A stretch of DNA of 64,000 bases from Methylobacterium sp. EM32 (GTDB lineage: Bacteria; Pseudomonadota; Alphaproteobacteria; Rhizobiales; Beijerinckiaceae), in NCBI RefSeq assembly GCF_040593685.1, contig NZ_JBEXZS010000136.1:1-64000 (forward strand), written 5' to 3'. Shown here one piece after another: positions 9,676-45,714 of this stretch. Made by a program: the position numbers and the translations under genes. The notes below the pieces were generated by a model. The model ran no database searches and was not told the DNA's origin. It saw only the letters and a list, made by a program, of their open reading frames with translations. Position 1 is the first letter of the stretch. Every line of letters begins with the position of its first letter.

Positions 9676-9762
9676 GTCGCCCTCTCTCCGAAGCTGCATC
9701 CGAAGCATCGCCCGATCGTTTTCGCGATCGGACACTGATCCGGGTCCCTGATCACGGTGGTC

Positions 9763-10930: not shown

Positions 10931-10966
10931 CCGGACCCCCACCGGAGCGCCGCCCCGCGGTGGCGC

Positions 10967-13900: not shown

Positions 13901-14458
13901 GTTGAGGCCCGGCTTGTTGCGCGACGGGCCTATCAGGTAGTCCGGGATGCCGCTCGTCATGCCGAGCAGGTTGCGCACCGTGATCGTGTTGCCGCCCGGG
14001 ATGGCGAGGTCGCCGACCCACTTGTTGATCGGGTCGTTGAGCCCGACGACGCCCTGGTCGACCTGGCCCAGCACCACGGTGCCGGTGAACGACTTCGAGG
14101 CGCTGCCGATGCGGAACTGCATGTCGGCGGTGAGCGGCTGGGTGCGGGCGGCGTCGGCGAAGCCGGCCGCGCCGGTCCAGGCCTGGCTGCCGCCGGCGAG
14201 GCTCACCCCGACGGCGATGCCCTGGGGCTGGCCCTGCGAGAGCGTGGCGTCGAGGAGCCCCTGCACCACGCCGCCGACCTTGGCGATGTCGACCTGGGCG
14301 ATGTTGATCTGGGCGATGTCGGCGGCGAGCGCCCTCCCGGGCGACAGGGCCGCGCCGGCGGGCCACAGGGCCGCCGCCATCCCCAGCCGTGCCGCGCACA
14401 CGAATTTGCCGCGGGGAGACCTGCCCCCCTGGAACCTGACCGCCTGCCGAGCCGACAT
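10967..14458 (-). CDS. Autotransporter: S12/beta-lactamase-fold serine hydrolase (family VIII esterase/peptidase-like) passenger, beta-helical stalk and C-terminal beta-barrel
   Basis: Signal-peptide-like N-terminus. Hydrolase motifs SASK (SxxK), YSN (YxN) and HSG. A long Gly/Thr/Ala-rich repeat region follows. The C-terminal translocator ends ...LGGLRWRF (aromatic terminus). The start is ambiguous among M1, M6 and M32. Confidence 0.8.
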   Translation of the reverse strand: MSARQAVRFQGGRSPRGKFVCAARLGMAAALWPAGAALSPGRALAADIAQINIAQVDIAKVGGVVQGLLDATLSQGQPQGIAVGVSLAGGSQAWTGAAGFADAARTQPLTADMQFRIGSASKSFTGTVVLGQVDQGVVGLNDPINKWVGDLAIPGGNTITVRNLLGMTSGIPDYLIGPSRNKPGLNVLQEWANFTSPAGPYGSAAYTPEQLVAAATQLTPKPIGQMNYSNTNFVVLGLIAQRASCLTPTGCRSIETLIDGMVGGIGLSKTTFPTGTGYTARFPQTVQNVFADTTTYNVPYGSRFDMTYVDPRVPWSAGAVLSSPADELRWVRQLATNNLGLLAPATQAQRVGDTTYGSVAGIPAHYGLAIYSMPSVGTGAWLLGHSGLIGGDTASLFYNRDLDAAYAINFVGYQSLAQPWFPLYGATAAFGPYVYPNANKQAGDFSSVVVLWALDRNVTLALTTQGSCSFGAAPTGGVCSGDNVRTTPLDVAGTGLTIQPSNRLIGGVVIGANNTTAPTAFVRPSLATFGSDIAAVALKGSANLTLQQGAGLEIWGARSAGVAMTGVGNRAEIAGTVATLGSSSVGVRIEGSLNTLDIRPTGTVNGANGPAITLAGTGNQALVAGTVTTIGTVLNDGTTIDKVAIRGSGFANRVEVQPGGTVSGDIVMGGAANAVRVDGTVVGSVGMAGTAMTLSGTGRVVGRVGGGGTVMPGNSIGPLSVGSYLGQDTALVIETAADGRSDRLAVAGAANLAGGTLQVVPVRGFGGIHTAVTAGAVQGGFDAVTTGSRTGAGVRYSPVAVEVATANPFQTDAAARTGAADSLRTLDLLERRANAFRTDSAFGPPAGAGAIGTPASPESGGSESLKTWLSQRGPLAAGSRATGAAVWASAYGHVSRFNADGPVPGIASSGGGVMVGADAELAPHLIAGVMGAFSRNAAQASPGGYASRLDTDAYKLAAYGAVEVGPAVISAFGLAGRGDLASLRPTAFAGMAGFARGRLDDTRFAGRLSALTTLQAGEVRLMPRAAVTLLRVEQSPYTEQGLPASYASTIGRTRFALARPELSLALGRTVAVSLGGWSGLLDAEIRAGIGRDLVLEAPDAQVRIPGFTPLAVRGFARDAFVVPVGARAELQVADALAVFADYEGAFSRLGTDNTVLGGLRWRF

Positions 14459-14630
14459 TCTGTGCCCCCGCACGTTCCGTCACGCTATCGATCGAGCGCC
14501 CGGCTCCGGCGCCTGGCCGGGAGTCACGGGCGTTGCGGGAAGCCGGTGCTCCGGCGTCCCGCAGAGAAAACTGCACGCTTTCCGGCAAGCGGGGGCTCTC
14601 CAGAGAGAACCTCTTTGGAGTGAGGCGCGG

Positions 14631-14790
14631 GATCCCCTCTCCCGTGTGGGAGAGGGGTAGGGGTGAGGGTGGAGACGGTGCCGCAAGAAGGCTGAACCGT
14701 TCCGCTGCCAGCACCACGCTCAGCGTTTCACACTGAAGCGTGTCACCCTCACCCCCGGCCCCTCTCCCACTCGGGAGAGGGGGGACCTGA
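14631..14790. repeat. REP/MITE-like palindromic element, copy 1 (terminal hairpins cccctctccc-N5-gggagagggg)
   Basis: A second copy lies at 48527-48696 in inverse orientation. Internal inverted repeat ggggtgagggtg/caccctcacccc. It is intergenic between the autotransporter and the ABC exporter. Confidence 0.7.
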
Positions 14791-14822
14791 GCTATTTCTT
14801 TTCTCCGAATCGCCCCGCACGA

Positions 14823-16457
14823 CTACTCCGCCATCACCGAAGCAGTCCTGACCACGTCAAGCCGGCCATTCTTCATGTCGACATGGATATCTGCCAAGTC
14901 GAAATACGCGTCGTCATGCGTGATTGCGATCACGGTTATTCCACGACCCTTGAGGAATGGCAAGACGACGCGGTAGAATTTCTCGCGAAAATGCGGATCC
15001 TGGTCGGCAGCCCATTCGTCGAACACGCAGATCGGGCGTTTCTCCAGGAGAGACCCGATCAGCGCCAGGCGTTTGCGCTGTCCACCCGACAACTTCGTGA
15101 CGGTGAAGCGTCCATTCTCCAACTTCGACTTGTGCTGCATTTCGAGAAGTGCGAACAATTCGTCGGCAAGCGCAGCATCGATCTCCTGGATGCCGTAGAG
15201 CTCGGAGAAGAGGTGGTTGTCCGAGAAGATGACCGAGAACAGGTTGCGGTAATCGGCCAGGGTGGCGGCGGTGACGGGGGTGCCGTCGACCCGGATGACG
15301 CCGCTGCTCGCCGGGTAGAGGCCGATCAGCATGCGGATGAAGGTGGTCTTGCCCGAGCCGTTGCCGCCGGTGAGGAACAGGGTGACGCCGCGCTCGACCG
15401 TGAGGTCGACCGGCCCGACCCGGAAGCCGCTCTCGCCCCCGGCGGCGTGGTGGGAGAAGGTCGCCCCATCGAGGACGATGCGGCGGAACCCGGCGAAGCG
15501 CCCGGCCACCGGCGCGGGCCCGGCCCCGGCCTCGCCGAGCCGCGCCTCCATCCGGGTGATGTTCTCGGCGGCCGCGTTGGCGTTGGCGAAGATCGGCAGG
15601 CTGCCGACCACGTTCGAGACCGGGCCGATCAGGAACAGGCTCGCGGTCGTGGTCATCACCACCACCTCGACATGGGCCTGGCTGACGTTCGGCACCACGA
15701 ACACCATGATCCCGGTGAGGATGAAGAACGTCACCTGCGAGGTCACGAAGTCGGTGGCGTAGGCGGTCTGGGTGCCGATCCGCATCCGCGTCACCTCGGC
15801 CGAGATGCGGGCGATCCGGGCCGCGATGGCGTCGGAGCGCTCCGTGCTCATCTTCACTTCCTTGAAGCCGTCGAGCATGTCGCTCAGGCCCTCGATCAGG
15901 TCGTTCTCGCGCTCGAAGGCGGCGCGCAGCTGGCGCTTCACCTCGCCGCTGCGCGAGAGGTGGATCATCGCGCCGAGCAGCGTGAAGCCGGACGAGAGCA
16001 GGAAGGCGGTCTGCGACAGGGCCGCCATGTAGACGAGCGTGAACCCGACCAGGATAGCCGACTGGACCGCGATGACGACGTTGGGCGCCGCCTGCGACAG
16101 GATCTGCGTCTCGCGGGTGAGGCAGGCATAGATCTCGGACCGGCCGACCTCGTCGAGGTCGAGGTATTCGGCCCGCCGGGCGCGCTCGACGAGGCGCGTG
16201 CGCATCCGGTCGATCAGCCGCTCGACCTTGTCGCAGACCTCGACCATCAGCGTGCGCTGGGTGACGACGAAGATCGCGATGGCGAGGCCGAACAGGACCA
16301 GGTTGCGGAAGTTGTCGGCCTGGTTCTGGACGTTGGCGGCCGCGACGTTGATGATGGCGAGCACGCCCGCATTGGACAGGCCCGAGAGCGCCGCCAGCAC
16401 CAGGAAGCGCGGACCGTCGACGCCCGCCTCCCGGCGGAAGAGGTCGAGCACCTTCAT
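14823..16457 (-). CDS. ABC transporter, fused permease/ATPase, cyclic-peptide exporter family (SyrD/PvdE-like)
   Basis: ORF 14823..16670. The real start is ATG 16457 (MKVLDLFRREAGV), overlapping the NRPS stop as ATGA. It has six TM helices, then Walker A GGNGSGKTT, signature LSGGQRKRLAL and Walker B ICVFDE. Confidence 0.85.
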   Translation of the reverse strand: MKVLDLFRREAGVDGPRFLVLAALSGLSNAGVLAIINVAAANVQNQADNFRNLVLFGLAIAIFVVTQRTLMVEVCDKVERLIDRMRTRLVERARRAEYLDLDEVGRSEIYACLTRETQILSQAAPNVVIAVQSAILVGFTLVYMAALSQTAFLLSSGFTLLGAMIHLSRSGEVKRQLRAAFERENDLIEGLSDMLDGFKEVKMSTERSDAIAARIARISAEVTRMRIGTQTAYATDFVTSQVTFFILTGIMVFVVPNVSQAHVEVVVMTTTASLFLIGPVSNVVGSLPIFANANAAAENITRMEARLGEAGAGPAPVAGRFAGFRRIVLDGATFSHHAAGGESGFRVGPVDLTVERGVTLFLTGGNGSGKTTFIRMLIGLYPASSGVIRVDGTPVTAATLADYRNLFSVIFSDNHLFSELYGIQEIDAALADELFALLEMQHKSKLENGRFTVTKLSGGQRKRLALIGSLLEKRPICVFDEWAADQDPHFREKFYRVVLPFLKGRGITVIAITHDDAYFDLADIHVDMKNGRLDVVRTASVMAE

Positions 16458-19400
16458 TCGGCGAGCAGCCGGTCGAGATCGTCGAGGGACAGCCCCTCGA
16501 AGGTCAGGTCGGAGGGCGTCACCTCCGCCTCCCCCCGCGAGAGGCAATGGGCGACCACCGCCTCGATCGCGTCCCGGTAGGCGGACAGCAGCGCCTGCGC
16601 CTCCTCGCGGGAGGTCCGGGCGCCGTCGAGATCGAGGCCGACCTCCATCTCGCCGTCGACCACCAGGCACAGCACGTCGGTGTGGTGGGGCCGCACGGCC
16701 TCGGGGTCGAGGGCGCCGCCGGGGGCGTCCCAGTCGACCGCGAACCGGCCGCCGCGCCGCGCCTCCGCCCCCATCTGCCCGAGATAGTTGAAGCTCACGC
16801 CCGGCCGCAGCCGCGGCGCGTCGGGCAGCGCCTGCATCGGGAGCCAGGTGAAGCCGTGGTCGGGCACGCGCCGGCGCCCGTCCTTGGCGGTGCGGATCGT
16901 GTCGGCGAGGTCGGCGCAGGCGTGCAGCTCCAGCGGGTGGAACATCGTGAACCAGCCGACCGTCCGGCCGGTGGCCGGGGCGCTCTCACCGAGCAGGTCC
17001 GCCGGGCGGTACTCGCGCCCGTGGCCCTCCAGCGTCACCAGGGTGCGGCGGGTGCCGGAATGCCGCTCCAGCGCGACCGCGAGGGCGGCGAGCAGCAGGT
17101 CCTCCGGGCCGGTGCCGTAGGCCCGGTTCGCCTCGGCCACGAGCGCGGCGGTCAGGTCCCGCGGCAGCCGCGCCCGCACCGAGAGCGCGTCGCCAACCCG
17201 GGCCGGGGGCGCTTCCGAGGCGGAATCGGGCGCGACCTGGCGCCAGGTGCGCAGGCGGCTCGTCCAGTCGATGGTGTCCGCGATCGTCGCCAGGGCCGCG
17301 GCGTGGTCGCGATAGGAATGGGTCTTCTCTGGCAGGCGCGGCGCGGCGCCGGAAAGCGCCGCCTCGTAGGCCGATTCGAGATCCTCCAGGAGGATGCCCC
17401 ACGAGACCGCGTCGACGACGAGGTGATGGGCGACGAGGAGCAGGCGGTGGCGCGCGCCGGTGCGGTCGAGGAGGGCGGCGAGGAGCGGCGTCCCGTCGAG
17501 GTCGAACCCGGCCTGGAGCCTGGAGGCCGCCGCCGCGAAGGCGGCCTCGCCACCAAGCGCCTCCCTGTCATGTGCGGGCAGCTCGGCGAGGCGGGGCGGA
17601 TCCCCGGGTGCCCGGAAGACCTGGCGCCAGCCCTCCGCCTCCTTGGTGAAGCGGGCCCGCAGGGCGTCGTGGTGGCGCCAGACCTCCGCCAGGGCGATTC
17701 CCATCGCCGCCGGGTCGATGTGGTCGGCGCGCAGCACCACCGCCTGGTTGAAGTGGCGCGGGCGCTCGGACGTCTCCAGGAACCAGCGCTGGATCGGGGT
17801 CAGCGGCACCGCGCCGACCACCGGCCCCTGATCGGCCCGGACCACGACCGGGCGCAGCACCGCGGCGAACTGCTCGGCGGTCGGGTTCTGGAACACGTCG
17901 CGGATCTCGCTCCGCCAGCCCTCCTGCCGCAGGCGCGACACGATCTGGATGGCGCGGATCGAATCGCCGCCGAGGCCGAAGAAGTCGTCCTGGACGCCGA
18001 TGTCCCGGCGCTCCATCACCTCGCCCCAGACCCGCAGGACCAGGGATTCGAGGGCCGTCTGCGGCGCGCGGCCTTCCGCCGGCGCGACCATCCCCGGGGC
18101 CGGCAGCGCCGCGCGGTCGACCTTGCCGTTGAGGGTGACGGGCATCCGCTCCAGCGGCACCAGGAAGGCCGGCACCGCGTAGGCCGGCAGCACCGTCAGC
18201 AGGTGCCGGCGCAACGCCACCGGCGAGGGGGTCTCGAAGCGCGGGATGCCATCGCCGGAAAAGAGCCCGTCATAGAACGGCGTCTGCCGGAAGCCGCCGC
18301 CGAAATGCGCGCTGAGGTAGCGGAACGGAACCGCCTCGCCGCATTCCCGCACGACGCGTCCGTCGAGGGCGAAATCGGCGTTGAGGCCGTTGCCGCACAG
18401 TCGCCGGTCGATCGACATCGCGATCCGGTCGCCTTCCCGCACCGCCACCGGCAGGTCGAAGACGGGGAGATAGACGGGCAGCCAGCTGCCGGGATTGTCG
18501 AGGATGTCGACCACCGCGTCCGCGTCGACGCCGAGCCGCAGCCAGACCAGGAAGCCGGTGAGGTCGCAGTCGCGCGTCACCGTGAGGGCGACGTCGTGGC
18601 GTTCCTCCAGCGGCACCTCCCTCGTGTAATCGAGGTACTCGAACACCCCGTCGTCGGAGACGATCGCCTCCCGCGGCAGGTTCTTCAGGCACAGGCGCAG
18701 GTCGAAGGGCTGGCCGACCTCGGCGAAGATCTTTTCCACGTAATGCGCCGCGACGTCGCTGAATCCGGGGGCGAGGCGGTCGCGCGGCAGCGACAGGGCG
18801 GCGATGCAGGTGTCGCTGAAGCGCGGCAGCATCGCCGCCGGATCCTTGAGGAAGCGGCGGGCGCCGTTGATGATCCGCGCCGCGCCCTCGGCGCCGCCGA
18901 TCGCCCCGACGATCTCCGAGATGCAGGCATCGACGGGTTCCGGCAGCGCCAGGGTGAGCGCGTCGCCGTGGATGACCTCGATCCGGTCCGACAGGCCGAG
19001 CCGCGCCACGGTCTCCCGCGCCTTGCGGGCGGTCGCCTCCAGGCGGTCGACGGCGTAGACCTTGCGCGCCCCGGCCTCGATCGCGAGCCGGGCCAGGATC
19101 ACCACCGGGCCGGTGCCGATATCGATCACGGTCTTGCCCGGCAGGTGGCGGGCGAAGGCCTCGCGGTAGCGCTGGTTGCGGCCCTCGTCGGCCGCCATGC
19201 TGCCATAGGCGACGTCGTCGTAGACGTAGAACTCGGCCACCGAGGGCCACAGCTCGACCGGCGCGTCGGCGCAGTAATAGGCGGCGAGCGCCGTCGATCC
19301 CTCCGGACGCGCGACCGGGGTGACGAGCGCGTCGCGCAGGCCCGGCACCCGGCGCAAAGCCGCCTCGACCTCGCCGATCTCGATGCGGTGGCCCGAGACC

Positions 19401-22400
19401 TTCACCTGCTCGTCGCTGCGGCCGAGGCAGTCGATCGTGCCGTCCGCGTTCCAGGCGGCGCGGTCGCCGGTGCGGTAGAGCCGCTCGCCGGTCTCCGGAT
19501 GGGTGATGAAAAGCTCGGCCGTGCGCTCCGGGTCGCCCTGGTAGCCGATGGCGAGGCCGCCGCCGCCGAGATGGAGTTCGCCCGGCACGCCCACCGGCAC
19601 CGGCGCCAGGGCGGCATCGAGGATGTGGGCGGTGGTGTTCGGCAGCGGCCGGCCGATCGGCAGCCGGGCCCGGCCGGCCTCCGCCGCACCCACCCGGTGG
19701 ATCGTCGCGCAGACCGAGGCCTCGGTCGGCCCATAGGCGTTGAAGGCGGCGAGATGGCCGGCATAGTGGCAGAGATCGGCCACCGGCGCCGCCTCGCCGG
19801 CGGTGATGAGGACCCGCAGGCCCGGCAGCGCGGCCCGCTCCAGGGCGCGCAGGTAGGTCGGCGGCAGGGTGACGACGCTGACGGAGAGCCGGCGCATCAG
19901 CGCGCGCAACGCCCCCGTCTCCTCGATCGCCGCGCGCGTCGGCAGCACGAGCGCCGCCCCGGCGAGGAGCGCCATAAAGATGTTGGCGAGCGAGGCGTCG
20001 AAGGACGGCGAGGCGAATTGCAGGACGCGGTCCTGCGGCCCGATGCCGAAGGCGGCGACTTGCGCCCGCGCCATCGTCACGAAGCCCGCATGGGCGACGA
20101 CGACCGCCTTCGGCGTGCCCGTCGAGCCGGAGGTGAAGATGACGTAGGCCGGATCTTCGGGGGCAGGATCTTGCGGCCGGCTCGCGTCGAGGGGCTCGGC
20201 CGTCCCGTCGTCTCCGACGAGCCAGGGCGCCACCGCCTCGACCGGGCGCCCGCCGGCGAGCGCGGCGGCGGCCGGATCGGCGCGGTCCTGCAGGACGAGC
20301 CGGCACCCGGCCCGCTCCAGCATCTCGCGCACGCGGGATTCCGGATAGGCCGGATCGACCGGCACGTAGACGCCGCCGGCCGTCATCACCGCGAGGAGCG
20401 CGAGGACGGATTCGGCGCTGCGCTCGGCCAGCACCGCCACCCGGTCGCCGGGAGCGAGGCCGTGGGCCGCGACGAGGTGCCGGCCGAGCCGGTCGGCGGC
20501 CTGGCCGAGGGCGCGGTAGCTCGTGCTCCGCCCCTCGGCGTCGATCAGCGCCGGCCGGTCGGGGTGCAGGCGCACCGCCTCGGCGAAGGCCGCCACGATG
20601 GTGGTGGCCGGGCGCGGGTCGCGTGGGCCCTGCGCGAAGGCCGCCACCGTCGCGGCCTCCTCGGGCGAGAGCAGGTTCAGCCGACCGAGCGGCCAGTCCG
20701 CATCCTCGATCGCGGCCCGGGCGAGCTCGCCGAAATGCCCACCCATGCGGGCGATGCGGTCGGCATCGAACAGGTCGGTGTTGTAGTTGAGGTCGAGGAG
20801 GAGAGCGCCCTCCTCCTCCTGGACGTGGAAGACGAGGTCGAAGCGGCTGAAGGTCCAGGCGTTCTGCCGGCCGAACGGGACGACCGACACGCCGTCCAGG
20901 GAGAGGTCGGTGTCGGTGAAGCCCTGCGGCACCACCATCACGTCGAAAAGGGCCGAGCGGCTCATGTCGCGTTCGAGCGCGAGGTCCTGGGCGAGATCCT
21001 GCACCAGGGCATCGAACGGGTAGGCCTGGTGGGCGAGGCCGTCGCGCAAGGTCGCGGTGACCTGGCCTAAGAGGTCGGCGAAGGAGTTTTCGGGCGACAC
21101 CCTGTCGCGTAGCGCCAGGGTGTCGACGTAATAGCCGATCTGGTCGGCCAAAGCCGGATGGGTGCGGCCGGCGACCGGGCTGCCGACCACGAGGTCGGTC
21201 TGGCCGCTATAGCGGTGCAGGAGCGCCTTGGTCAGGGCGATCAGGAGCGCGGCGCGGGTGCTGCCCTGGCGCCGGGCGAGGTCGTCGAGGCCGCGCGACA
21301 GCGCGACCGGCAGGGAAAAGCGCTGCGTCGTACCGGCGAAGGTCTGGACCGGCGGGCGCGGCCGGTCGGTCGGCAGGGCGAGGGGCGCCACGGGCTCGGC
21401 GAAACGCTCGCGCCAATAGGCGCGGTCGGCCTCGAGCTGCCCGTCCGCGAGGCGCGCGGCCTGCCAGGTCGTGGCGTCGCGCAGCTGGAGCGGCAGCGGC
21501 GCGAGGTCGGGTGCCCTCCCCTGCCGGCGCGCGGCGTAAGACGCGGCGAGGTCGCGCACCAGCACGCCGAGGGACCAGACATCGGCGACGATGTGGTGGA
21601 TGGTGAACAGGAGGAGGTGGCGCTCCGCTCCGTCCGCGTCGGGCAGGCGGGCGAGGACGACCCGCATCAAGGGCCCGCTTCGCAGATCGAAACGGTGGCC
21701 GGCCTCCCCGGCGGCGAGGGAATCCGCCGCGGAATCCGGGGCGTCCCGCAGGTCGCGCCGCTCCAGGATCCAGTGTGGCACCGGATGCACGATCTGGCGG
21801 GCGGTCCCGTCAGGTTCCTCGTCGAAGGTGGTGCGCAGGGCCTCGTGCCGGGCGACGAGGTCGCGGAAGGCCGCCTCCAGGGCATCTGGATCGAGGGGCC
21901 CGCGCAGTTCCAGCGCCTCGCCGAGGTTGTAGGCGGTCGGCGCCACGCCGAGCCGGTCGAGGCGCCACAGCCGTCCTTGCACCGGGCTGACCGGATAGCT
22001 CGCGGCCTCCGGCGCGAGGGGGATCGCCTCTCCTTCCGGCCGCGCCGCCGCGATCAGCCGGCCGAGCGCCCGGATCGTCTGGGCGGCGAAGAAGTCCTTC
22101 AGGCTGACCTCGACCGAAAAGGCCTGGTAGATCCGCTGCACCGCCCGGATCGCCCGCAGGCTGTCGCCGCCGAATTCGTGGAAGCCGGTCTCGGCCCCGA
22201 CCTGCGATAAGCCGAAGATCTCGCGCCAGATCGCCGCCAGCCCCTCCTCGGTCTCGCCCTCGGGAGCGACGTAGGAATGCTGGGCGTAGAACAGCTCCTC
22301 CGGCCGCGGCAGGGCGCGGCGGTTGAGCTTGCCGCTCACGGTGGTGGGTAGGTCCTTGAGCGGCACCAGCACACGCGGCCGGGTCGCCGCCGGCAGCGTC

Positions 22401-23830
22401 TCGGCGAGGGCGAGGCGGATCGCCTCCAGGTCGAGCACCGTCCCGGCTTCGGCCGGGACGACGTAGCCGACGAGCACCGGCAGGTCGCCGGCGCCCGTGT
22501 GCACGGCGGCCGCCGCCTTGCCGACACCCGGCACCTCGCGCAAGCCGGCCTCGACCTCGCCGAGCTCGATGCGCACGCCGCCGATCTTGACCTGGTTGTC
22601 CTGGCGCCCGAGGCATTCCACCGTGCCGTCCGGCAGGAGGCGGCCCATATCGCCGGTGCGGTAGATCAGGTCGGCCGGATCGTCCCCGAGGGGATTCGGC
22701 ACGAAGGCGGCCCGCGTCGCCTCCGGGTCGCCGAGATAGCCGAGCGACGGATAGGCAGTCCTGATGTGGATCTCGCCGATCTGCTGGGGCGCGCAAGCGC
22801 GGCCGTTGGCGAGCACCAGGATGCTGGTATCGGGCAGGGGCCGGCCGATCGGCAGCACCCGGCGCGGATCCGTGATCGGACCGACGCGGGAGAAGACCTT
22901 GGCGAGGGTCGTCTCCGAGGGGCCGTAGAGGTTGACGACCTCGGCTCCCTCCCCGGCTGCCTCGCGCCAGGCCAGCACATCGGCGCCGATGAGCGGCTCG
23001 CCGGCGACCAGGAGGTGGCGCAGGGCCGGGAAGGCGCGGGTTCCGCCGCGATCGGCCAGCTCGCGGGTGATCAGGCGCAGGACTGTGGGCACGCAATGGA
23101 CCAGGGTGACCGCCTCCCGGGCGAGCCAGTCGACCAGCCGGCGCGGCACCATGCGGGTCTCGGGGTCGGGAATGCAGAGCGTGCCGCCGACCATCAGCGG
23201 GACTAGGATGTCGCGCAGGCTGACGTCGAAGGTGATCGGGGCGAGCCAGGAGCCGCGGGTGGTCGAATCGAGGGCGAATTCCCCGGTCTCCCAGCGCAGG
23301 AAATGCGCGAGGCTGCGATGGGGCCCGAGGATCGCCTTCGGCTCGCCGGTCGAGCCGGAGGTGAACATCACGGAGCAGGGATCGGCCGGGCCGATGCGGC
23401 GGGCAACCGGCGGCATCGCGTCGAGCGCCGGCAGATCCTCGATCCCGATCACCTCGACCGGGTCGGCGCCGGCGAGCGCCGCCTCCAGGGCGGGGCGGTG
23501 GGCCCGGTCCGTCACGACGACCCGGCAGGCGGCCTTGGCGAGGCAGGTGCGCAGCCGCCGCGGCGGCAGGTCCGGCGGCAGCGGCAGGAAGGCGGCCCCC
23601 GCCTTGCCGACACCCAGCAGCGCCTGGACGTAATCGGCGCCCGCTTCCAGGAACAGGCCGGCGACGGCGCCGCGGCCGAGGCCGCTCGCGGCGAGGCGGC
23701 GGGCCAGCCGCTCGGCGCCGCGGTCGAGCTCGTCGTAGCGGGTCCAGCCGCCGTTCCAGGACAGGGCCGCGGCCCCGGGCCGGAGCGACGCCTGAAGCTC
23801 GAACTGATCGACGAAGGAGCCGCGCTGCAT
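16454..23830 (-). CDS. NRPS, two modules: A-T-C-A(embedded methyltransferase)-T-C
   Basis: Part of the 3094-aa ORF, whose Arg-rich N-terminal 600 aa is an out-of-frame overlap with the asnB-like gene. The start is ATG 23830 (MQRGSFVDQ) or GTG 23878. A1 motifs FTSGSTGEPKA and NLYGPSETT. T1 FHEFGGDSLRAI. C domain HHIVADVWS. A2 FTSGSTGTPKA and NAYGPTEAS. A SAM-MT insert sits between A8 and A9, with VIDIGTGPVVILARLAIEAGARKVYAVD at ~19101-19130. T2 FFGLGGDSIRAI. C-terminal C domain HHLVVDAVSWG. Confidence 0.9.
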   Translation of the reverse strand: MQRGSFVDQFELQASLRPGAAALSWNGGWTRYDELDRGAERLARRLAASGLGRGAVAGLFLEAGADYVQALLGVGKAGAAFLPLPPDLPPRRLRTCLAKAACRVVVTDRAHRPALEAALAGADPVEVIGIEDLPALDAMPPVARRIGPADPCSVMFTSGSTGEPKAILGPHRSLAHFLRWETGEFALDSTTRGSWLAPITFDVSLRDILVPLMVGGTLCIPDPETRMVPRRLVDWLAREAVTLVHCVPTVLRLITRELADRGGTRAFPALRHLLVAGEPLIGADVLAWREAAGEGAEVVNLYGPSETTLAKVFSRVGPITDPRRVLPIGRPLPDTSILVLANGRACAPQQIGEIHIRTAYPSLGYLGDPEATRAAFVPNPLGDDPADLIYRTGDMGRLLPDGTVECLGRQDNQVKIGGVRIELGEVEAGLREVPGVGKAAAAVHTGAGDLPVLVGYVVPAEAGTVLDLEAIRLALAETLPAATRPRVLVPLKDLPTTVSGKLNRRALPRPEELFYAQHSYVAPEGETEEGLAAIWREIFGLSQVGAETGFHEFGGDSLRAIRAVQRIYQAFSVEVSLKDFFAAQTIRALGRLIAAARPEGEAIPLAPEAASYPVSPVQGRLWRLDRLGVAPTAYNLGEALELRGPLDPDALEAAFRDLVARHEALRTTFDEEPDGTARQIVHPVPHWILERRDLRDAPDSAADSLAAGEAGHRFDLRSGPLMRVVLARLPDADGAERHLLLFTIHHIVADVWSLGVLVRDLAASYAARRQGRAPDLAPLPLQLRDATTWQAARLADGQLEADRAYWRERFAEPVAPLALPTDRPRPPVQTFAGTTQRFSLPVALSRGLDDLARRQGSTRAALLIALTKALLHRYSGQTDLVVGSPVAGRTHPALADQIGYYVDTLALRDRVSPENSFADLLGQVTATLRDGLAHQAYPFDALVQDLAQDLALERDMSRSALFDVMVVPQGFTDTDLSLDGVSVVPFGRQNAWTFSRFDLVFHVQEEEGALLLDLNYNTDLFDADRIARMGGHFGELARAAIEDADWPLGRLNLLSPEEAATVAAFAQGPRDPRPATTIVAAFAEAVRLHPDRPALIDAEGRSTSYRALGQAADRLGRHLVAAHGLAPGDRVAVLAERSAESVLALLAVMTAGGVYVPVDPAYPESRVREMLERAGCRLVLQDRADPAAAALAGGRPVEAVAPWLVGDDGTAEPLDASRPQDPAPEDPAYVIFTSGSTGTPKAVVVAHAGFVTMARAQVAAFGIGPQDRVLQFASPSFDASLANIFMALLAGAALVLPTRAAIEETGALRALMRRLSVSVVTLPPTYLRALERAALPGLRVLITAGEAAPVADLCHYAGHLAAFNAYGPTEASVCATIHRVGAAEAGRARLPIGRPLPNTTAHILDAALAPVPVGVPGELHLGGGGLAIGYQGDPERTAELFITHPETGERLYRTGDRAAWNADGTIDCLGRSDEQVKVSGHRIEIGEVEAALRRVPGLRDALVTPVARPEGSTALAAYYCADAPVELWPSVAEFYVYDDVAYGSMAADEGRNQRYREAFARHLPGKTVIDIGTGPVVILARLAIEAGARKVYAVDRLEATARKARETVARLGLSDRIEVIHGDALTLALPEPVDACISEIVGAIGGAEGAARIINGARRFLKDPAAMLPRFSDTCIAALSLPRDRLAPGFSDVAAHYVEKIFAEVGQPFDLRLCLKNLPREAIVSDDGVFEYLDYTREVPLEERHDVALTVTRDCDLTGFLVWLRLGVDADAVVDILDNPGSWLPVYLPVFDLPVAVREGDRIAMSIDRRLCGNGLNADFALDGRVVRECGEAVPFRYLSAHFGGGFRQTPFYDGLFSGDGIPRFETPSPVALRRHLLTVLPAYAVPAFLVPLERMPVTLNGKVDRAALPAPGMVAPAEGRAPQTALESLVLRVWGEVMERRDIGVQDDFFGLGGDSIRAIQIVSRLRQEGWRSEIRDVFQNPTAEQFAAVLRPVVVRADQGPVVGAVPLTPIQRWFLETSERPRHFNQAVVLRADHIDPAAMGIALAEVWRHHDALRARFTKEAEGWRQVFRAPGDPPRLAELPAHDREALGGEAAFAAAASRLQAGFDLDGTPLLAALLDRTGARHRLLLVAHHLVVDAVSWGILLEDLESAYEAALSGAAPRLPEKTHSYRDHAAALATIADTIDWTSRLRTWRQVAPDSASEAPPARVGDALSVRARLPRDLTAALVAEANRAYGTGPEDLLLAALAVALERHSGTRRTLVTLEGHGREYRPADLLGESAPATGRTVGWFTMFHPLELHACADLADTIRTAKDGRRRVPDHGFTWLPMQALPDAPRLRPGVSFNYLGQMGAEARRGGRFAVDWDAPGGALDPEAVRPHHTDVLCLVVDGEMEVGLDLDGARTSREEAQALLSAYRDAIEAVVAHCLSRGEAEVTPSDLTFEGLSLDDLDRLLAE
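18280..19160 (-). other. Embedded SAM-dependent methyltransferase domain (class-I, PRMT-like motif I) interrupting A domain 2 of the NRPS
   Basis: Motif I VIDIGTGPVV and post-I YAVD lie between the A8 (VKVSGHRIEIGEVE) and A9/A10 (AVPAFLVP...LNGKVDR) motifs, the canonical insertion site for NRPS methylation domains. Confidence 0.7.
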
Positions 23831-23874
23831 GACGTGAGGGACCTTGGCGTAAGGAACCTGGGCGTGGGGGACGG

Positions 23875-25740
23875 TCACGAGAGCCTCGGAAGATCGAAAT
23901 GTTCGCGAAGGATGCCGAAGGTGAGGACCACCATCAGGACGTCGTCCTCGAAGGTCTGGTTGATCTCGGCCCCGGCGAGGAAGCGGGCCTTGAGATGCGC
24001 CACCGCCCCGGCGTTGAAGTAGCCGTCGGCGGCGACGCGGGCCTCGTCGAGGAGGTCGTGGATTCGGGGCAGGCCGGCACGCAGCAGGGTGGCGCTGCTC
24101 TGGGCGACGAAGCTGAACTTGCGCCGCTCGACGATCGCCGCCGGCAGGTAGCGCCGGGCCAGCGCCTTGAGGACGAATTTCTCCTCCCCCCGCTGCACCA
24201 TCAGCTGCGGCGGGATGCGCCGGGCGACGTCGATGACGTCGAGGTCGAGGAAGGGGTAGCGCGCCTCGACCGAGTTGGCGAAGGAGACCCGGTCGCCGTG
24301 ATCGGCGAGCAGGTGGTCGGCCATCCGCAGCTTGAAGTCGAGATAGGAGCGGATGTGGAACGGGTGGCGCCCCTCGATCCGCGCGCGGTCGACCAGGGGC
24401 TGCTCCAGGCAGTCGAACCCGTCGAAGGCTTCCGCCAGGGCGGGCGCGTAGAGTTCGCGGCGGATCTCGCGGCTCTCCGAGTAGCTCTTCTCGTAGAGGA
24501 AGCGCGAATCGCCCCACAGCCGCCCGCGCAGCTCCGCCTCGATCAGGGCGTCGAGGTCGCCCGAATCGTCCTCTGCGTCCCGCTCCAGGTCGAGGCGGTA
24601 GCCGACATAGCCGCCGAACAATTCGTCCGCGCCCTCGCCGGTCAGCACGACCTTCAGGCCCTCCTCCCGCACCATGCCGGAGAGCGCGAGGGAGCAGACG
24701 TTGTAGGATTCGCGCAACGGCGCCTCGGCGCAGTGGACGATCCGGTCGAGGCCGGCGGCGAGGCGGGCGGGGTCGATCTCGCGCTCGTGGTGGATCGTCC
24801 CGAGGCGGCGCGCCATCAGGCGCTGCGGCTCGCGCTCGTCGATCGCCCGGTCCGGGAAGGTGATCGAGAAGGTGTGGCGAGGCGCCCCCGGCTCGAGGTC
24901 GGCCGCGATGGCGGCGATGAGCGAGCTGTCGAGGCCGCCGCTGAGATAGGCGGCGACCGGCACGTCGGCCTGGAGGCGGCGGCGCACCGCTTGGCGCAGG
25001 GCGGCGTCGAGTTCGTCGACATGGTCCTCCAGGCGGCGGGCGGGGGCGATGTCCTCGGCGCGGGGAAAGTCGAGGTCCCAGTACGGCTCGACCCGCAGCG
25101 GCCGGCCCGGATCGGCGATCAGCACGTGGCCCGGCGGCAGGCTCCTGACGCCGGCCAGGATGGTGCGCGGGCTCACCAGACCCGGGAAGGTGAGGATCTG
25201 GTCGAGGGCCGTGAGGTCGACCGCCCGGGACAGGCCGGGATGGCAGAGCAGCGCCCGGATCTCGGAGGCGAAGAGCAGCGCGCCGCCGATCTCGGCGTAG
25301 AACAGCGGCGCGATGCCGACATGGTCGCGCCCGAGCACCAGCCGCCGGGTGGTGCGGTCGTAGGCCGCGAAGGCGAACTGGCCGTTGACCCGGCGCGGGA
25401 AGTCCGGGCCGTGGGCGATGAGCAGCGCCGGCACCACCTCGGTGTCGCATTGCGTGACGAAGCGGTGGCCGGCGGATTCGAGATCCGCCCGCAGCTCGCG
25501 AAAATTGTAGATCTCGCCGTTGCAGACCGCGACCGCCCGGCCGTCGCCGGCGAACATCGGCTGCTGCCCGTGGGCGAGGTCGACGATCGACAGGCGGCGG
25601 AAGCCCAGCGCGATGCCGTCCTCGGCGAAGAAGCCGTCGTCGTCCGGGCCGCGGTGGCGGACGCTCTCCGCCATCCGGCGGATCAGCGCGGGGTCCGGGC
25701 GTGCGCCGGTGCGATCGAGAAGGCCGACGATGCCGCACAT
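23875..25740 (-). CDS. Asparagine synthetase (glutamine-hydrolysing)-like amidotransferase, AsnB family
   Basis: ORF 23875..25782. The real start MCGIVGLL gives the N-terminal Cys nucleophile of class-II glutamine amidotransferases. The synthetase domain carries the PP-loop SGGLDSS. It lies between the two megasynthase genes, with 4-bp and GTGA spacings. Confidence 0.85.
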   Translation of the reverse strand: MCGIVGLLDRTGARPDPALIRRMAESVRHRGPDDDGFFAEDGIALGFRRLSIVDLAHGQQPMFAGDGRAVAVCNGEIYNFRELRADLESAGHRFVTQCDTEVVPALLIAHGPDFPRRVNGQFAFAAYDRTTRRLVLGRDHVGIAPLFYAEIGGALLFASEIRALLCHPGLSRAVDLTALDQILTFPGLVSPRTILAGVRSLPPGHVLIADPGRPLRVEPYWDLDFPRAEDIAPARRLEDHVDELDAALRQAVRRRLQADVPVAAYLSGGLDSSLIAAIAADLEPGAPRHTFSITFPDRAIDEREPQRLMARRLGTIHHEREIDPARLAAGLDRIVHCAEAPLRESYNVCSLALSGMVREEGLKVVLTGEGADELFGGYVGYRLDLERDAEDDSGDLDALIEAELRGRLWGDSRFLYEKSYSESREIRRELYAPALAEAFDGFDCLEQPLVDRARIEGRHPFHIRSYLDFKLRMADHLLADHGDRVSFANSVEARYPFLDLDVIDVARRIPPQLMVQRGEEKFVLKALARRYLPAAIVERRKFSFVAQSSATLLRAGLPRIHDLLDEARVAADGYFNAGAVAHLKARFLAGAEINQTFEDDVLMVVLTFGILREHFDLPRLS

Positions 25741-25744
25741 CGGC

Positions 25745-40240
<14,496 letters not shown>

Positions 40241-40339
40241 GCGTCCGCCCCGGCATTTCTGCTGATCTGATGTTTGCTCGATAGAAATCTCGTCACGAGA
40301 CGTCAAGCGAGATTTTAAAATACACGTCGCCCTTGACAC

Positions 40340-40450
40340 GATGTCTCGGATAAGACTGCCTAGTTAGATCTATAGTGATTCGAAAACGTTCGTAAAATTG
40401 TCATTTCCAGATTCGGGAAAATCGCTTAAGTCAGAATTTTCCTGCATCGG
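40340..40450 (-). promoter_or_regulatory. AT-rich putative promoter/leader of the lipopeptide operon
   Basis: A sharp GC drop (ttttaaaatacacg...tatagtgattcgaaaacgttcgtaaaattgtcatttcc) lies immediately 5' of the megasynthase start. No -35/-10 can be assigned with confidence. Confidence 0.3.
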
Positions 40451-40853
40451 GCGGTGTAGGCCTTACAGCAAAGCCGGTGCGGCGGGCGCGCAAGCTGGCC
40501 GGCGTGTCGATACCGTTCCGGCGCTGGCCGGCCCCTCCGCACTGCAACCCTGGCGGGCGCTTTGCCGGCCGCCGGACGGGGCGACAGCGTGCCCGCGCGA
40601 TCCTCGCACCGGCGATGGACCGGGCCGTGGCGGCGGCAGATGCGCGTGCGGACGGCCGGTCGTGGGGCATGCGCGCGCCGCAGTCTCGTGCATCGTGGCG
40701 CAGCCGACACCTCACGATACAGGCGCGATCAGAACAAGATTTCTAGATATATATTTAGATTTAGATGATCTGTGCGTCAGTTGACAGCGCAGACATCGCT
40801 ACAATTATATTATATAATTACTCAATTCTATCTTGATTATCTCAGCCATGTCT

Positions 40854-41012
40854 CCACCCTCCGCGTCATCCCGGGGCTCGACGAAGTCGAGAACCCGGGA
40901 TCCATAACCGCTGATGCTTCCGGACGAAGCGGGACGTCCTCCGCTTCATTCTCAACTGTCAGCGGTTATGGATCCCGGGTTCCGCTTGCGCGGCCCCGGG
41001 ATGACGATGGCG
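40854..41012. mobile_element. MITE-like element copy A (TIR ccaccctccgcgtcatcccgggg ... ccccgggatgac) with nested internal palindrome
   Basis: Internal inverted repeat cccgggatccataaccgctga/tcagcggttatggatcccggg. A homologous copy is at 44339-44500. Confidence 0.6.
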
Positions 41013-41438: not shown

Positions 41439-42551
41439 TCAGGTCCGGAAGCGCTCGATGCCGAGCGCGCCGATCCGGGTCTGGGTGCCGCCCTCGACGA
41501 TGAGCTCGGCCATGACGGCGCCCGCCGCCGGCCCGAGCTGGAAGCCGTGCAGCGAGAAGCCGAACTGGTGATAGAGGCCGGGATGCCGGGCGCTCGGCCC
41601 GAGCACCGGCAGGTCGTCCTTCATCTTGGCCTCGATGCCCGCCCAGGCGCGCAGGATCGTCGCGTCGCGCATGACGGGAAAGAGTTCGAACACCGTGCGG
41701 GCGCTCTCGGACAGGCGCCGCCAGTTCAGCACCGTCGTGCCCTTCTCCTGGTCCGGCACCGCGAGGTGGCCGCCGCCGATCAGCACCGTGCCGTTGGCAA
41801 ATTGCTTGAACGACAGCTTGCGGCCGCGCAGGATCACCACCGGATCGATGAAGTGCGGCACCTTCGAGGTGATCATCAGCATCGGCGCCACGGTCTCGAC
41901 CGGGACCGGCTCGCCGAGGGATTCGGCGATGCGCCCGGCCCAGGCGCCGGCGGCGTTGACGAGGACCGGCGCCGCATAGGTGTCGGCGCCGACATCGACC
42001 CGCCACAGCCCGTCCTCCCGGCGCACGTTCCGGGCCGGCTCGCCCTCGCGCACGATGGCGCCGAGACTCTCCGCCTTGCGCCGGAACGCCGCCACCGTGC
42101 GGGCGGGCTGGGCCGCGCCGTCGCGGCGCGAGACGACGCCGCCCGGGCAGGTCTCGGCCACCGCCGGCACCAGCCGGCGCAGTTCCGCCCCGTCGATCAG
42201 CTCCTCGTGGGTGAAGCCGCGGCCCTGCAGGTCCTCGACGCGCTCGCGGCAGGCCGAGAGTTCGCCCTCGTCCTCGGCCACCAGAACCTGGCCGTGGCTC
42301 TCGAAGCCGCACTCGTCGTCGACGAGGTCGCCGATGCGCTCCCAGAGGTCCATCGAGCGGATCGAGAGCGGAATCTCGGCGACGTGGCGGGCGAGCTGGC
42401 GCACCCCGCCGGCATTGACGCCCGAGGCGTGGCGGCCGGCATAATCCTTCTCGATCAGGACGGGCTTGAGCCCGGCCCGGCAGAGATGGAGCGCGGTCGA
42501 GCAGCCGTGGATCCCGCCCCCGACCACGATGGCGTCGGCGAGCAGGGTCAT
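41439..42551 (-). CDS. FAD-dependent oxidoreductase, DAO family (HcnC/opine-oxidase subunit B/sarcosine-oxidase-beta-like)
   Basis: Start MTLLADAIVVGGGIHGCSTALHL (GxGxxG). It overlaps the upstream gene as ATGA at 42548-42551. Confidence 0.8.
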   Translation of the reverse strand: MTLLADAIVVGGGIHGCSTALHLCRAGLKPVLIEKDYAGRHASGVNAGGVRQLARHVAEIPLSIRSMDLWERIGDLVDDECGFESHGQVLVAEDEGELSACRERVEDLQGRGFTHEELIDGAELRRLVPAVAETCPGGVVSRRDGAAQPARTVAAFRRKAESLGAIVREGEPARNVRREDGLWRVDVGADTYAAPVLVNAAGAWAGRIAESLGEPVPVETVAPMLMITSKVPHFIDPVVILRGRKLSFKQFANGTVLIGGGHLAVPDQEKGTTVLNWRRLSESARTVFELFPVMRDATILRAWAGIEAKMKDDLPVLGPSARHPGLYHQFGFSLHGFQLGPAAGAVMAELIVEGGTQTRIGALGIERFRT

Positions 42552-43981: not shown

Positions 43982-44274
43982 CGGCCGATCTCCCGCTTGC
44001 CCTTCTGGATCTCGATGCGCATGCCGTCTTCCACCGGCACGAGGCAGCCCTGGCGGTTGCCGACCCCGTCGATGGTGACGAGGCAGTCGAAGCACACCCC
44101 CATCATGCAGTAGGGCAGCCGCGGCGCCCCACTGACCGCGGTGAGCCGGCGCACGTCGCGGCCGGAGGCGAGCAGAGCGGCCGACACGGTGTCGCCCGCC
44201 CGCGCCTCGACGGTCGCGCCCTCGACGAGGATGCGGACGATCGGTCTGGTGTCGTGGTCGGATCGCTTGAACAT
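43978..44274 (-). CDS. Small [2Fe-2S]-binding subunit (HcnA/sarcosine-oxidase-like ferredoxin)
   Basis: 98 aa with cysteine cluster PYCMMGVCFDCLV. It is the first gene of a three-subunit HcnABC-like arrangement. Confidence 0.75.
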   Translation of the reverse strand: MFKRSDHDTRPIVRILVEGATVEARAGDTVSAALLASGRDVRRLTAVSGAPRLPYCMMGVCFDCLVTIDGVGNRQGCLVPVEDGMRIEIQKGKREIGR

Positions 44275-44338
44275 GGGCGTCTCCGGGCCCGGGGCCCTCG
44301 TGGTATCTCGGTGGTTGTCGGGGTGGCTGACGGTACTG

Positions 44339-44500
44339 CCACCCTCCGCGTCATTCCGGGGCCGCGCAGCGGAGCCCGGAATCCAGAGCCGCGGATGTTT
44401 CCAGAAGGGGCGGATAGCGTTCCGCTCGATTCTCTCGGAACTGAGGTTCTGGATCCCGGGCTCTCGCCTGCGGCGAGCCCCGGGATGACCCTGTGGGGTG
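44339..44500. mobile_element. MITE-like element copy B (TIRs ccaccctccgcgtcattccgggg / ccccgggatgaccctgtggggtgg)
   Basis: Same family and orientation as 40854-41012. Together they bracket the HcnABC-like/RidA operon. Confidence 0.6.
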
Positions 44501-44545
44501 GGAGCCGTCGCGGCCGACGACTGTCGCTCGTGCTGAAAACAGCTC

Positions 44546-45685: not shown

Positions 45686-45714
45686 GTGAACTCCTGTGCG
45701 CCGGCGCTGGCTCT

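Follow-up and report, generated by a model that had tools for sequence, protein, structure and literature searches.

Gene organization of the locus

The window analyzed here is a 64,000-nucleotide stretch of Methylobacterium sp. EM32 (contig NZ_JBEXZS010000136.1, positions 1 to 64,000, ~70% GC), in which a run of minus-strand genes at 2862-40240 was picked out by GC content at third codon positions (GC3). The run carries a candidate gene cluster for a lipopeptide with a beta-amino fatty acid head, assembled by a hybrid of a polyketide synthase (PKS) with a nonribosomal peptide synthetase (NRPS). Domains are abbreviated as A (adenylation), C (condensation), T (peptidyl carrier), E (epimerization), TE (thioesterase), FAAL (fatty-acyl-AMP ligase), ACP (acyl carrier protein), KS (ketosynthase), AT (acyltransferase), AMT (aminotransferase) and MT (methyltransferase). 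The core genes and the putative promoter are as follows.

40312-40400, minus strand: AT-rich stretch (40300-40400 at 40% GC) with a sigma-70-like -35/-10 pair (consensus match only)
25745-40240, minus strand: megasynthase A, 4831 residues from an ATG at 40240 (Pfam, self-BLAST domain map, GC3 0.94)
23875-25740, minus strand: glutamine-dependent AsnB-family amidotransferase with an MCGIVG start and an SGGLDS PP-loop (Pfam GATase_7 and Asn_synthase)
16454-23878, minus strand: NRPS B, 2474 residues from a GTG at 23878, A3-T3-C5-A4(MT)-T4-E (Pfam, self-BLAST, motifs)
14823-16457, minus strand: SyrD/PvdE-type cyclic-peptide ABC exporter (TIGR01194 score 297.6, cutoff 286.2; ATGA overlap with B)
2862-6794, minus strand: terminal NRPS, 1310 residues, comprising a DCL-type C domain, A5, T5 and a TE with GWSFG (Pfam, motifs)

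Megasynthase A, AsnB, NRPS B and the ABC exporter (14823-40240) are translationally coupled: the TAG stop of A is followed after 4 nt by the ATG of AsnB, AsnB and NRPS B overlap in GTGA, and NRPS B and the exporter overlap in ATGA. A first-pass annotation of the sequence had described a single unit of ~25.5 kb. Given these junctions, a coupled unit of about 25.4 kb is real, but the conserved cluster extends to 2862 and does not end at 14823. Outside the main operon lie the terminal NRPS, Band7 and DUF697 genes, an opposite-strand type II thioesterase (TEII) gene and an autotransporter gene. The functional cluster is ~37 kb long (2862-40240) and is made up of at least three transcription units. 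All frames were intact over 37 kb at GC3 0.83-0.96, and a GC3 strand check of 14823-40450 detected no plus-strand open reading frame (ORF) with coding-like GC3. ORFs 13302-14717 and 9552-13058 were rejected as spurious: neither matched a Pfam family, and both overlap the autotransporter gene, whose GC3 is high.

The ATG at 40240 is the same start codon as had been chosen previously for A. A promoter had been proposed in AT-rich DNA at ~40.4 kb; such DNA is present there, with the sigma-70-like pair at 40339-40312 (minus strand), ~70 nt before the ATG of A, recognized by consensus match only. Domains named in the first-pass annotation were recovered at the expected places with extremely low E-values (Pfam), as were the AsnB-like amidotransferase, embedded methyltransferase and SyrD-like exporter downstream of A (Pfam, TIGRFAM scores) and, nearby, the TEII (10124-10930) and the C-A-T-TE NRPS (2862-6794; Pfam). 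Four features had been missed or slightly misread: an A-less module 1, tandem C2-C3 domains between T1 and A2, the terminal E domain of B, and the affiliation of the methyltransferase with protein arginine methyltransferases (PRMTs).

Self-BLAST with its own C, A and T domains gave the domain order of A as FAAL-ACP1-KS-AT-ACP2-AMT-C1-(A relic)-T1-C2-C3-A2-T2-C4. Pfam returned AMP-binding, four PP-binding, N- and C-terminal ketoacyl-synt, Acyl_transf_1, Aminotran_3 (6.9e-48) and four Condensation matches in A, and two AMP-binding, two PP-binding, two Condensation and Methyltransf_25/18 matches in NRPS B. Counted over the whole line, peptidyl carrier domains number five and amino-acid A domains four, and six C domains stand against five condensations. 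Relatives were collected by a pattern-seeded scan with the AMT domain, taking one genome per species, which gave 13 loci at >=70% identity; individual loci in other genomes are cited below by L numbers, and metagenome-assembled genomes are termed MAGs.

The predicted beta-amino fatty-acyl starter

The first six domains of megasynthase A were assigned as follows.

38540-40102, minus strand: FAAL loading domain (best PDB matches FAAL-type: 6ULX, 3PBK (E. coli FAAL), McyG, 3KXW, FadD32)
38225-38467, minus strand: ACP1, GLTSL serine (motif; one of four Pfam PP-binding stretches)
37073-38167, minus strand: KS, with Cys-His-His in DTACSS, HGTGT and NLGH (Pfam, motifs)
35831-36619, minus strand: integrated AT, malonyl-type signature GHSVG and HAFH (Pfam, motifs)
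35240-35497, minus strand: ACP2, GLDSL serine (motif)
33590-34768, minus strand: class-III pyridoxal phosphate (PLP) aminotransferase (AMT) with TYGK lysine (best PDB match MycA AMT 6KFM)

The best solved relative of the AMT was the AMT of MycA (6KFM; 484 bits, E 2.8e-144), compared with 206 bits for the best glutamate-semialdehyde aminomutase. Its PLP-lysine is present, with TYGK aligned to TYGK of MycA, and the KS carries all three residues of its Cys-His-His set; both had been named beforehand as points on which the assignment depended. No ketoreductase, dehydratase or enoylreductase domain was found in megasynthase A (Pfam), so the beta-keto group is expected to be kept. C1 begins ~35 residues past the end of the AMT, which it follows directly.

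MycA extends a fatty acid by one malonyl unit and transaminates the product to a beta-aminoacyl thioester (PMC3870968, PMC11751314). The corresponding core reading of the first-pass annotation (FAAL loading, one malonyl extension and transamination to a beta-amino-acyl starter passed to the NRPS) held up. Its statement that the domains stand in the exact order of MycA/ItuA did not, because those proteins have no integrated AT and the malonyl transferase of iturin and mycosubtilin synthesis is a separate protein, ItuD/FenF, acting in trans (PMC11751314), whereas the AT is in cis here.

Adenylation and condensation domains

The remainder of A and the opening A domain of B were mapped as follows.

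32180-33490, minus strand: C1, HHIVADGWS, directly after the AMT (self-BLAST, motifs)
31790-32167, minus strand: decayed C-terminal subdomain of an A domain (A relic), without A core and with the A10 lysine replaced (alignment to intact A subdomains)
31565-31774, minus strand: T1, carrier of the A-less module, GGHSL (self-BLAST, motif)
30230-31510, minus strand: C2, LCL-like, HHAISDVWS (best PDB match Txo2 at 224 bits; motif kept in relatives)
28940-30202, minus strand: C3, divergent extra C domain, HHALADPAS, usual GWS lost (best PDB match 121 bits)
27470-28894, minus strand: A2, code DFWTVGMVHK, Thr-like (alignment to GrsA)
27188-27382, minus strand: T2 (self-BLAST, motif)
25826-27133, minus strand: C4, HHIVADGWS, C-terminal domain of A, serving the A-T that opens NRPS B (self-BLAST, motif)
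22328-23767, minus strand: A3, code DVRTLALLAK, unusual and conserved (alignment to GrsA)

Between C1 and T1, ~125 residues of A-domain origin remain, with a degenerate A8 motif and the sequence PRRADGSPDR in the A10 region. Eight of 10 loci could be aligned here, and the A10 lysine was missing in all eight relatives with a readable position. A stand-alone A domain was found neither in the window nor in the DNA that precedes the FAAL gene upstream in four other genera, Sphaerotilus, Limnohabitans, Xanthobacter and Pseudochelatococcus. The idea of a hidden trans-acting A or C protein was dropped on the same search of the window and of these four genera. As module 1 is without an A core, loading of T1 would have to occur in trans, through one of the cluster's four A domains. 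The four A domains and 4-5 residues of the first-pass annotation were kept in part: there are four amino-acid A domains, but five peptidyl carriers.

C2 and C3 were also considered as epimerases. Both matched C and not E domains in the PDB, and EGHGRE and RTVGWFT are absent from both. The HHxxxD of C3 is retained in every relative possessing C3; the domain is missing in an Azospirillaceae MAG (L010, 1394-7650), which also lacks the A relic and has an A2 code of DVEAVGAIT, with AsnB and the DVRTLALL A domain kept.

Codes were read from an alignment to GrsA, with motif anchors checked. A4 gave DAATIAAVC(K), which is Phe/Tyr-like, and A5 gave DLTSLGHICK, an Asp/Asn-like scaffold without Lys278; no Asn code was present among the four A domains. 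The code strings of all four were absent from the searchable literature. Arg at position 239, as in the A3 code, is found in codes for acidic residues and suggests that the substrate of A3 may be acidic.

The AsnB amidotransferase

AsnB scored 441.7 against TIGR01536 (cutoff 267.1) and retains the glutaminase nucleophile Cys2 (MCGIVG). Among solved structures it was closest to 7YLZ, a hydroxyamidotransferase that modifies carboxylates (190 bits), and to AsnB of E. coli (1CT9, 178 bits). With Cys2, the PP-loop, the TIGR01536 score and AsnB-type solved relatives in agreement, the enzyme should use glutamine to convert a carboxylate to a primary amide. The idea that AsnB serves as a beta-lactam synthetase, with the beta-amino acid as its substrate, was rejected, since Cys2 is kept and the similarity to beta-lactam synthetase (1JGT) is weak (54 bits vs 178-190 for AsnB/TsnB9-type enzymes).

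Within the close family, the gene always lies between C4 and the DVRTLALL A domain, and the cassette AsnB / A(DVR[T/S]LALL)-T-C-A(aromatic)-T-E is met again as far off as a Thermodesulfobacteriota MAG. Five AsnB homologues at 52-57% identity were sampled, and four adjoin KS-AT-ACP-AMT megasynthases, so that this AsnB clade appears largely to mark AMT-containing clusters. The four come from Methylobacter (L049), Magnetospirillum (L050), the Thermodesulfobacteriota MAG (L052) and Inquilinus (L053), with AsnB at ~8001-11900 in each, often accompanied by a beta-lactamase-fold gene, Band7 and an ABC exporter; the fifth, from Omnitrophota, is not AMT-linked. The preferred reading is that AsnB acts on the acidic residue chosen by A3 or on another carboxylate of the product.

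Methyltransferase and epimerization domains and the terminal module

Two further domains of NRPS B were delimited.

18179-19246, minus strand: PRMT-like methyltransferase inserted between A8 and A10 of A4 (best PDB match PRMT6, 1.4e-18)
16457-17785, minus strand: E domain ending B, HHLVVDA, EGHGRE, RTVGWFT, FNYLGQ (motifs, PDB)

The best 60 of 71 PDB matches of the A4 insert were all protein arginine methyltransferases, and no NRPS N-methyltransferase was among them. A backbone N-methyltransferase of the TioS type was considered from the A8-A10 insertion site and rejected on these relatives. In LynB3 of lyngbyapeptin B synthesis, a PRMT-like domain lies in a Tyr-activating A domain and is presumed to carry out Tyr O-methylation (PMC10127204). 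By analogy, the A4 methyltransferase is probably a Tyr O-methyltransferase, modifying the side chain and not the backbone nitrogen. The embedded methyltransferase of the first-pass annotation was thus located, though not as an NRPS N-methyltransferase.

The last domain of B was most similar in the PDB to the E domains of BacC, TycB, PvdL, TycA and GrsA. The C domain of the terminal NRPS starts YPLTPFQEG, and its best PDB matches were the C domains of TycB1 and SrfA-C, which follow E domains and accept D donors. The cluster was extended to ~2862 because this DCL-type C domain of the C-A-T-TE protein pairs with the E domain ending B, in agreement with synteny. The TE motif GWSFG is present in the terminal NRPS; cyclizing and hydrolyzing chemistry are not distinguished by its sequence.

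Relatives and conservation

The closest AMT relatives were those of a proteobacterial MAG (91%) and Methylobacterium frigidaeris (88%). At the DNA level, identity of the cluster was 92.5% with a contig from a JGI metagenome and 89.8% with M. frigidaeris. The layout through A-AsnB-B recurs in Methylobacterium, Xanthobacter, Pseudochelatococcus, Bradyrhizobium, Azospirillum, Endothiovibrio and a Pseudoalteromonas MAG (L031/L048). Codes were near-invariant across relatives (DFW[T/S/A][V/I]GMVH, DVR[T/S]LALL, DAA[T/A/S][I/V]AAVC and DLTSLGHI) while the A domains themselves were 43-70% identical, which argues for selection on one product. As read from the sequences, the pattern is that of a working design under selection and not of decay.

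The genes outside the operon were also traced. In a Bradyrhizobium MAG, the FAAL gene has a C-A-T-TE homologue and a TEII gene immediately upstream. Sphaerotilus and Pseudoalteromonas carry, likewise upstream of it, a homologous NRPS gene that ends in a TE (L008, L009/39 and L031 in all; 43-56% identity), and what is visible at the upstream edge of two Xanthobacter loci (L006/7) is no more than a short TE fragment (72-75% identical). DUF697, Band7/SPFH, ABC exporter and beta-lactamase-fold genes recur in relatives in shuffled order. As the terminal NRPS, TEII, DUF697, Band7, exporter and hydrolase all recur in related clusters, the conserved set is taken to span 2862-40240. In two Sphaerotilus MAGs (L009, L039) and Limnohabitans sp. 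2KL-51 (L012), at ~4600-21000, the first protein stops after the AMT, and AsnB and an A-T-C-A(MT)-T-E protein follow directly.

PLSDB plasmids searched by megablast with 23000-41000 gave only short matches of 71-78% to generic NRPS/PKS genes. No near-identical characterized cluster was found in these searches or in the literature, in keeping with the earlier suggestion of an uncharacterized family.

Accessory genes

The remaining genes of the cluster lie between the exporter and the terminal NRPS.

10967-14458, minus strand: autotransporter of 1163 residues with an S12 (beta-lactamase-fold) D-peptidase-like passenger (Pfam, motifs, PDB)
10124-10930, plus strand: TEII, GYSVG (Pfam Thioesterase 2.6e-35; homologues within related clusters L008, L012 and L042)
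9100-9735, minus strand: DUF697 membrane protein (Pfam; homologues in L009, L011, L031, L037 and L039)
7304-8758, minus strand: SPFH/Band-7 protein (Pfam; recurs in L031, L049 and L053)

The S12 passenger carries SxxK at S119, YxN at Y228 and HSG at 385. Its closest structures were alkaline D-peptidase 4Y7P (78 bits), the S12 D-stereospecific peptidase 3WWX and the R61 DD-peptidase, whereas SurE (6KSU) and ClbP each gave ~30 bits. A signal-like N-terminus and a C-terminal autotransporter barrel were recognized, on which grounds the hydrolase should act outside the cytoplasm. A beta-lactamase-fold gene, with or without a barrel, was found in related clusters L006, L011, L012, L043, L047, L050 and L053. 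A role as a SurE-like offloading cyclase was judged unlikely for an autotransporter passenger that is D-peptidase-like and matches SurE at ~30 bits. A ClbP/XcnG-type N-acyl-D-Asn prodrug system was rejected, as module 1 is C-T without an E domain, the match to ClbP is equally low and the enzyme is an autotransporter. The presence of a surface D-peptidase-like enzyme beside a line with one D residue suggests extracellular processing or self-protection, as a lead and not a finding.

Band-7 and DUF697 genes recur as far as the Pseudoalteromonas, Inquilinus, Methylobacter and Campylobacterota-labelled MAG clusters. The FAAL gene of Xanthobacter sp. VTT E-85238 has directly upstream of it a gene of the Peptidase_S58 (DmpA/BapA) family (L006:3265-4452, minus strand); no Peptidase_S58 homologue was noticed in the window. 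Some enzymes of the S58 (DmpA/BapA) family cleave off D- or beta-amino acids at a free N-terminus.

Proposed assembly and alternatives

The cluster at 2862-40240 (minus strand) is read as an intact, probably functional hybrid PKS-NRPS cluster for a beta-amino fatty acid lipopeptide (probability roughly 0.8), assembled as follows. A fatty acid would be adenylated and loaded on ACP1, one malonyl unit would be added to give a beta-ketoacyl-ACP2, and transamination would give a beta-aminoacyl-ACP2. C1 would couple this beta-aminoacyl unit to the residue borne by T1, which would have been loaded in trans through one of the four A domains. A Thr-like residue (A2) would be added via C2/C3, with one of these two C domains having another or no condensation role, and C4 would hand the chain to A3-T3 of NRPS B, where the Arg 239 of the code suggests an acidic substrate. 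AsnB, encoded between C4 and A3, most likely amidates the carboxylate of the A3 residue or of the product with glutamine. A4 would add a Phe/Tyr-type residue, to be methylated by the PRMT-like domain (probably to O-methyl-Tyr) and converted to the D form by the E domain, and residue 5 would be added by the separate C-A-T-TE protein through its DCL-type C domain. Release by the TE would occur most simply by attack of the free beta-amine, giving an iturin-like macrolactam of five alpha-residues and the beta-amino acid, which would be exported by the SyrD-type ABC transporter.

Several observations weigh against this reading or against parts of it. The substrates of A3 and A5 are not readable from known codes; one C domain is surplus, and C3 has lost the GWS after HHxxxD; a separate A domain to load T1 was not found in the window or in the relatives examined. 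MbtH, phosphopantetheinyl transferase (PPTase) and TauD genes were not found within the window, and the absence of the first two counts here. The terminal module lies 7.8 kb from the operon, with the autotransporter, the opposite-strand TEII, DUF697 and Band7 between, and no C-A-T-TE gene was present in the region seen downstream in Azospirillum sp. TSH100. The DVRTLALL A domain is missing in two distant AsnB-AMT clusters, so the AsnB target may be more general and perhaps not residue 3. In the Sphaerotilus and Limnohabitans variants, C1-C4 are missing and a C domain that would couple the beta-aminoacyl unit was not found, for which reason the assembly order may not be fully as drawn. Expression of the cluster is predicted from the genes, and no characterized product was found in the literature for the layout, the four codes or any member of the family.

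A linear, microginin-like product, released by hydrolysis at the TE and keeping a free N-terminal beta-amine, is a real though less favored possibility; AsnB might then amidate the C-terminus, and the product would be of the exopeptidase-inhibitor type. In microginins, a linear pentapeptide with methylated Tyr residues is headed by a beta-amino fatty acid; the predicted length of five alpha-residues and the methylated aromatic residue correspond to this. AsnB-type enzymes typically amidate free carboxylates, the closest solved relative modifies a carboxylate, and the S58 peptidase gene adjoins the cluster in Xanthobacter. The exporter, however, belongs to the cyclic-peptide exporter family TIGR01194, Pfam detected in A no monooxygenase domain that could carry out the alpha-hydroxylation known from microginins, and the sequence of the TE does not tell hydrolysis from cyclization.

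It is considerably less likely that the C-A-T-TE protein belongs to another pathway and that a tetrapeptide on T4 is released by the beta-lactamase-fold enzyme, as a SurE-like penicillin-binding-protein (PBP)-type TE, or by the TEII. B ends in T-E without a TE, and the beta-lactamase-fold gene conserved nearby follows the logic of PBP-type TEs, which cyclize chains with a C-terminal D residue (PMC11735501, PMC9113502); in Magnetospirillum and Inquilinus, a beta-lactamase gene directly follows a T-E-terminated NRPS. Here the hydrolase has the features of a protein exported from the cytoplasm (signal-like N-terminus, autotransporter barrel) and its closest structures are D-peptidases, with SurE at ~30 bits. 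The first domain of the terminal NRPS is a C domain of the DCL type, for which an E domain is required upstream, and homologues of this NRPS adjoin the FAAL gene of Bradyrhizobium, Sphaerotilus and Pseudoalteromonas, with the TE fragment at the edge of the two Xanthobacter loci. A decaying relic without product, as the deleted A core and decayed subdomain of module 1, the altered C3 motif and the lack of nearby PPTase or MbtH genes might suggest, is extremely improbable given the intact frames, the GC3 of 0.83-0.96 and the persistence of the A-less layout, the C3 HHxxxD and the codes down to 33-60% protein identity across three proteobacterial classes.

Beyond the macrolactam assembly preferred here, a wider proposal is more speculative and rather doubtful: that the cluster belongs to a scattered uncharacterized superfamily combining an AMT beta-amino-acyl module, this AsnB clade, an S12 hydrolase, SPFH/Band-7 (often with DUF697) and a cyclic-peptide exporter, in which AsnB amidates the carrier-bound DVR(T/S)LALLAK residue and the surface hydrolase cuts or opens the lipopeptide at its D-aromatic residue. 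If true, AsnB would act on the assembly line by analogy with tRNA-dependent transamidation, and surface cleavage would amount to prodrug-like maturation or self-protection.

Comparison with known systems

Initiation passes the sequence tests of iturin/puwainaphycin/microginin logic, yet the cluster is not a member of the iturin family. Shared with mycosubtilin and iturin synthesis (MycA/ItuA) are an acyl-AMP ligase, ACP, KS, ACP and AMT followed directly by a C domain, an AMT whose closest solved relative is that of MycA with the PLP-lysine kept, and the expected outcome, a beta-amino-acyl starter whose beta-amine can close the ring at release. The cluster is set apart from the family by its cis-AT in place of the trans-acting ItuD/FenF of Bacillus, by five carrier positions instead of seven and by the lack of Asn codes, the iturin family having an Asn-rich peptide. 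An A-less first amino-acid module, other codes throughout, an AsnB gene in the operon, an extra C domain, a PRMT-like methyltransferase and a Gram-negative alphaproteobacterial host are further differences.

The integrated AT resembles cyanobacterial and myxobacterial versions rather than MycA. Puwainaphycin, minutissamide and microginin pathways of cyanobacteria likewise start with a FAAL and use a cis-AT PKS module with an AMT to feed an NRPS (PMC4219810). They have a stand-alone FAAL and ACP and an oxygenase for alpha-hydroxylation, whereas the FAAL and ACP are fused here and no oxygenase domain was found (Pfam). To our knowledge, the cyanobacterial pathways carry neither an AsnB gene nor the S12 hydrolase/Band7/DUF697 set. 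The cystomanamide pathway of Cystobacter, also Gram-negative, resembles the present one by its described FAAL-ACP-KS-AT-ACP-AMT-C initiation and 3-amino fatty acid lipopeptide product and differs in peptide and tailoring; we know of no AsnB cassette or A-less first module in it.

The flavipulchrins of Pseudoalteromonas flavipulchra also contain a 3-amino fatty acid made by a PKS module with an AMT (PMC12819058, 2026). Their synthesis differs in starting with a Cs domain and not a FAAL, in its seven modules (Gly, Asp, Asn, Asn, Thr, Leu, Arg) and in a TauD hydroxylase (PMC12819058), and that cluster family is distinct from the Pseudoalteromonas MAG locus L031/L048, which has the layout of the window. 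LynB3 and LynB5 of lyngbyapeptin B synthesis share a Tyr-type A domain interrupted by a PRMT-resembling methyltransferase (PMC10127204); LynB3 bears a second, TioS-like N-methyltransferase, whereas the PRMT-like domain stands alone here, and O-methylation by LynB3 is itself presumed (PMC10127204).

In the literature found, beta-amino fatty acid lipopeptides come mainly from Bacillus and cyanobacteria, flavipulchrin being the one proteobacterial case found. The family described here is kept in plant- and water-associated alpha-, beta- and gammaproteobacteria with near-unchanged codes, which suggests one ecologically useful molecule. Orphan NRPS clusters are common, but the conserved odd features of this one are experimentally tractable and several carriers are cultured isolates, such as Methylobacterium frigidaeris JCM 32048, Azospirillum agricola CC-HIH038 and Xanthobacter sp. 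VTT E-85241. Testable cases are offered by the loading of the A-less module, the role of the surplus tandem C domain, the target of an AsnB encoded in an NRPS operon and the target of the PRMT-like methyltransferase.

Surroundings of the cluster in the window

A high-GC, REP-containing proteobacterial replicon had been inferred previously, and both attributes were borne out: the window is ~70% GC with a repC gene at 50868-52019, and its REP-like palindromes (repetitive extragenic palindromic elements) are real, with 4 copies observed vs 0 expected. The palindrome CCCTCTCCC-N4-GGGAGAGGG occurs at 14635-14656, 14760-14781, 48530-48551 and 48669-48690, in two pairs, each just downstream of an ABC transporter gene. 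The repC gene is on the minus strand, with no adjacent repA/repB detected. A low-GC island at 56000-60000 (53-56% GC) contains a ParA/CbiA-like gene (58127-59950) and ORFs without a Pfam family; together with repC, it suggests a secondary replicon with an inserted mobile segment. PLSDB plasmids searched by megablast with 41000-64000 gave only short matches of 71-78%, all to genes for transporters and oxidoreductases.

Immediately upstream of the cluster, 41439-49946 (minus strand) encodes opine/sarcosine-oxidase-like FAD oxidoreductases and a binding-protein-dependent ABC importer, with DNA identity of about 74-78% to Azospirillum and Microvirga plasmids; a divergent LysR regulator gene lies at 49910-50845. 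At 450-2747 (minus strand), a short way downstream of the terminal NRPS, lies the gene of a hybrid histidine kinase of the PAS-HWE type that includes a receiver domain.

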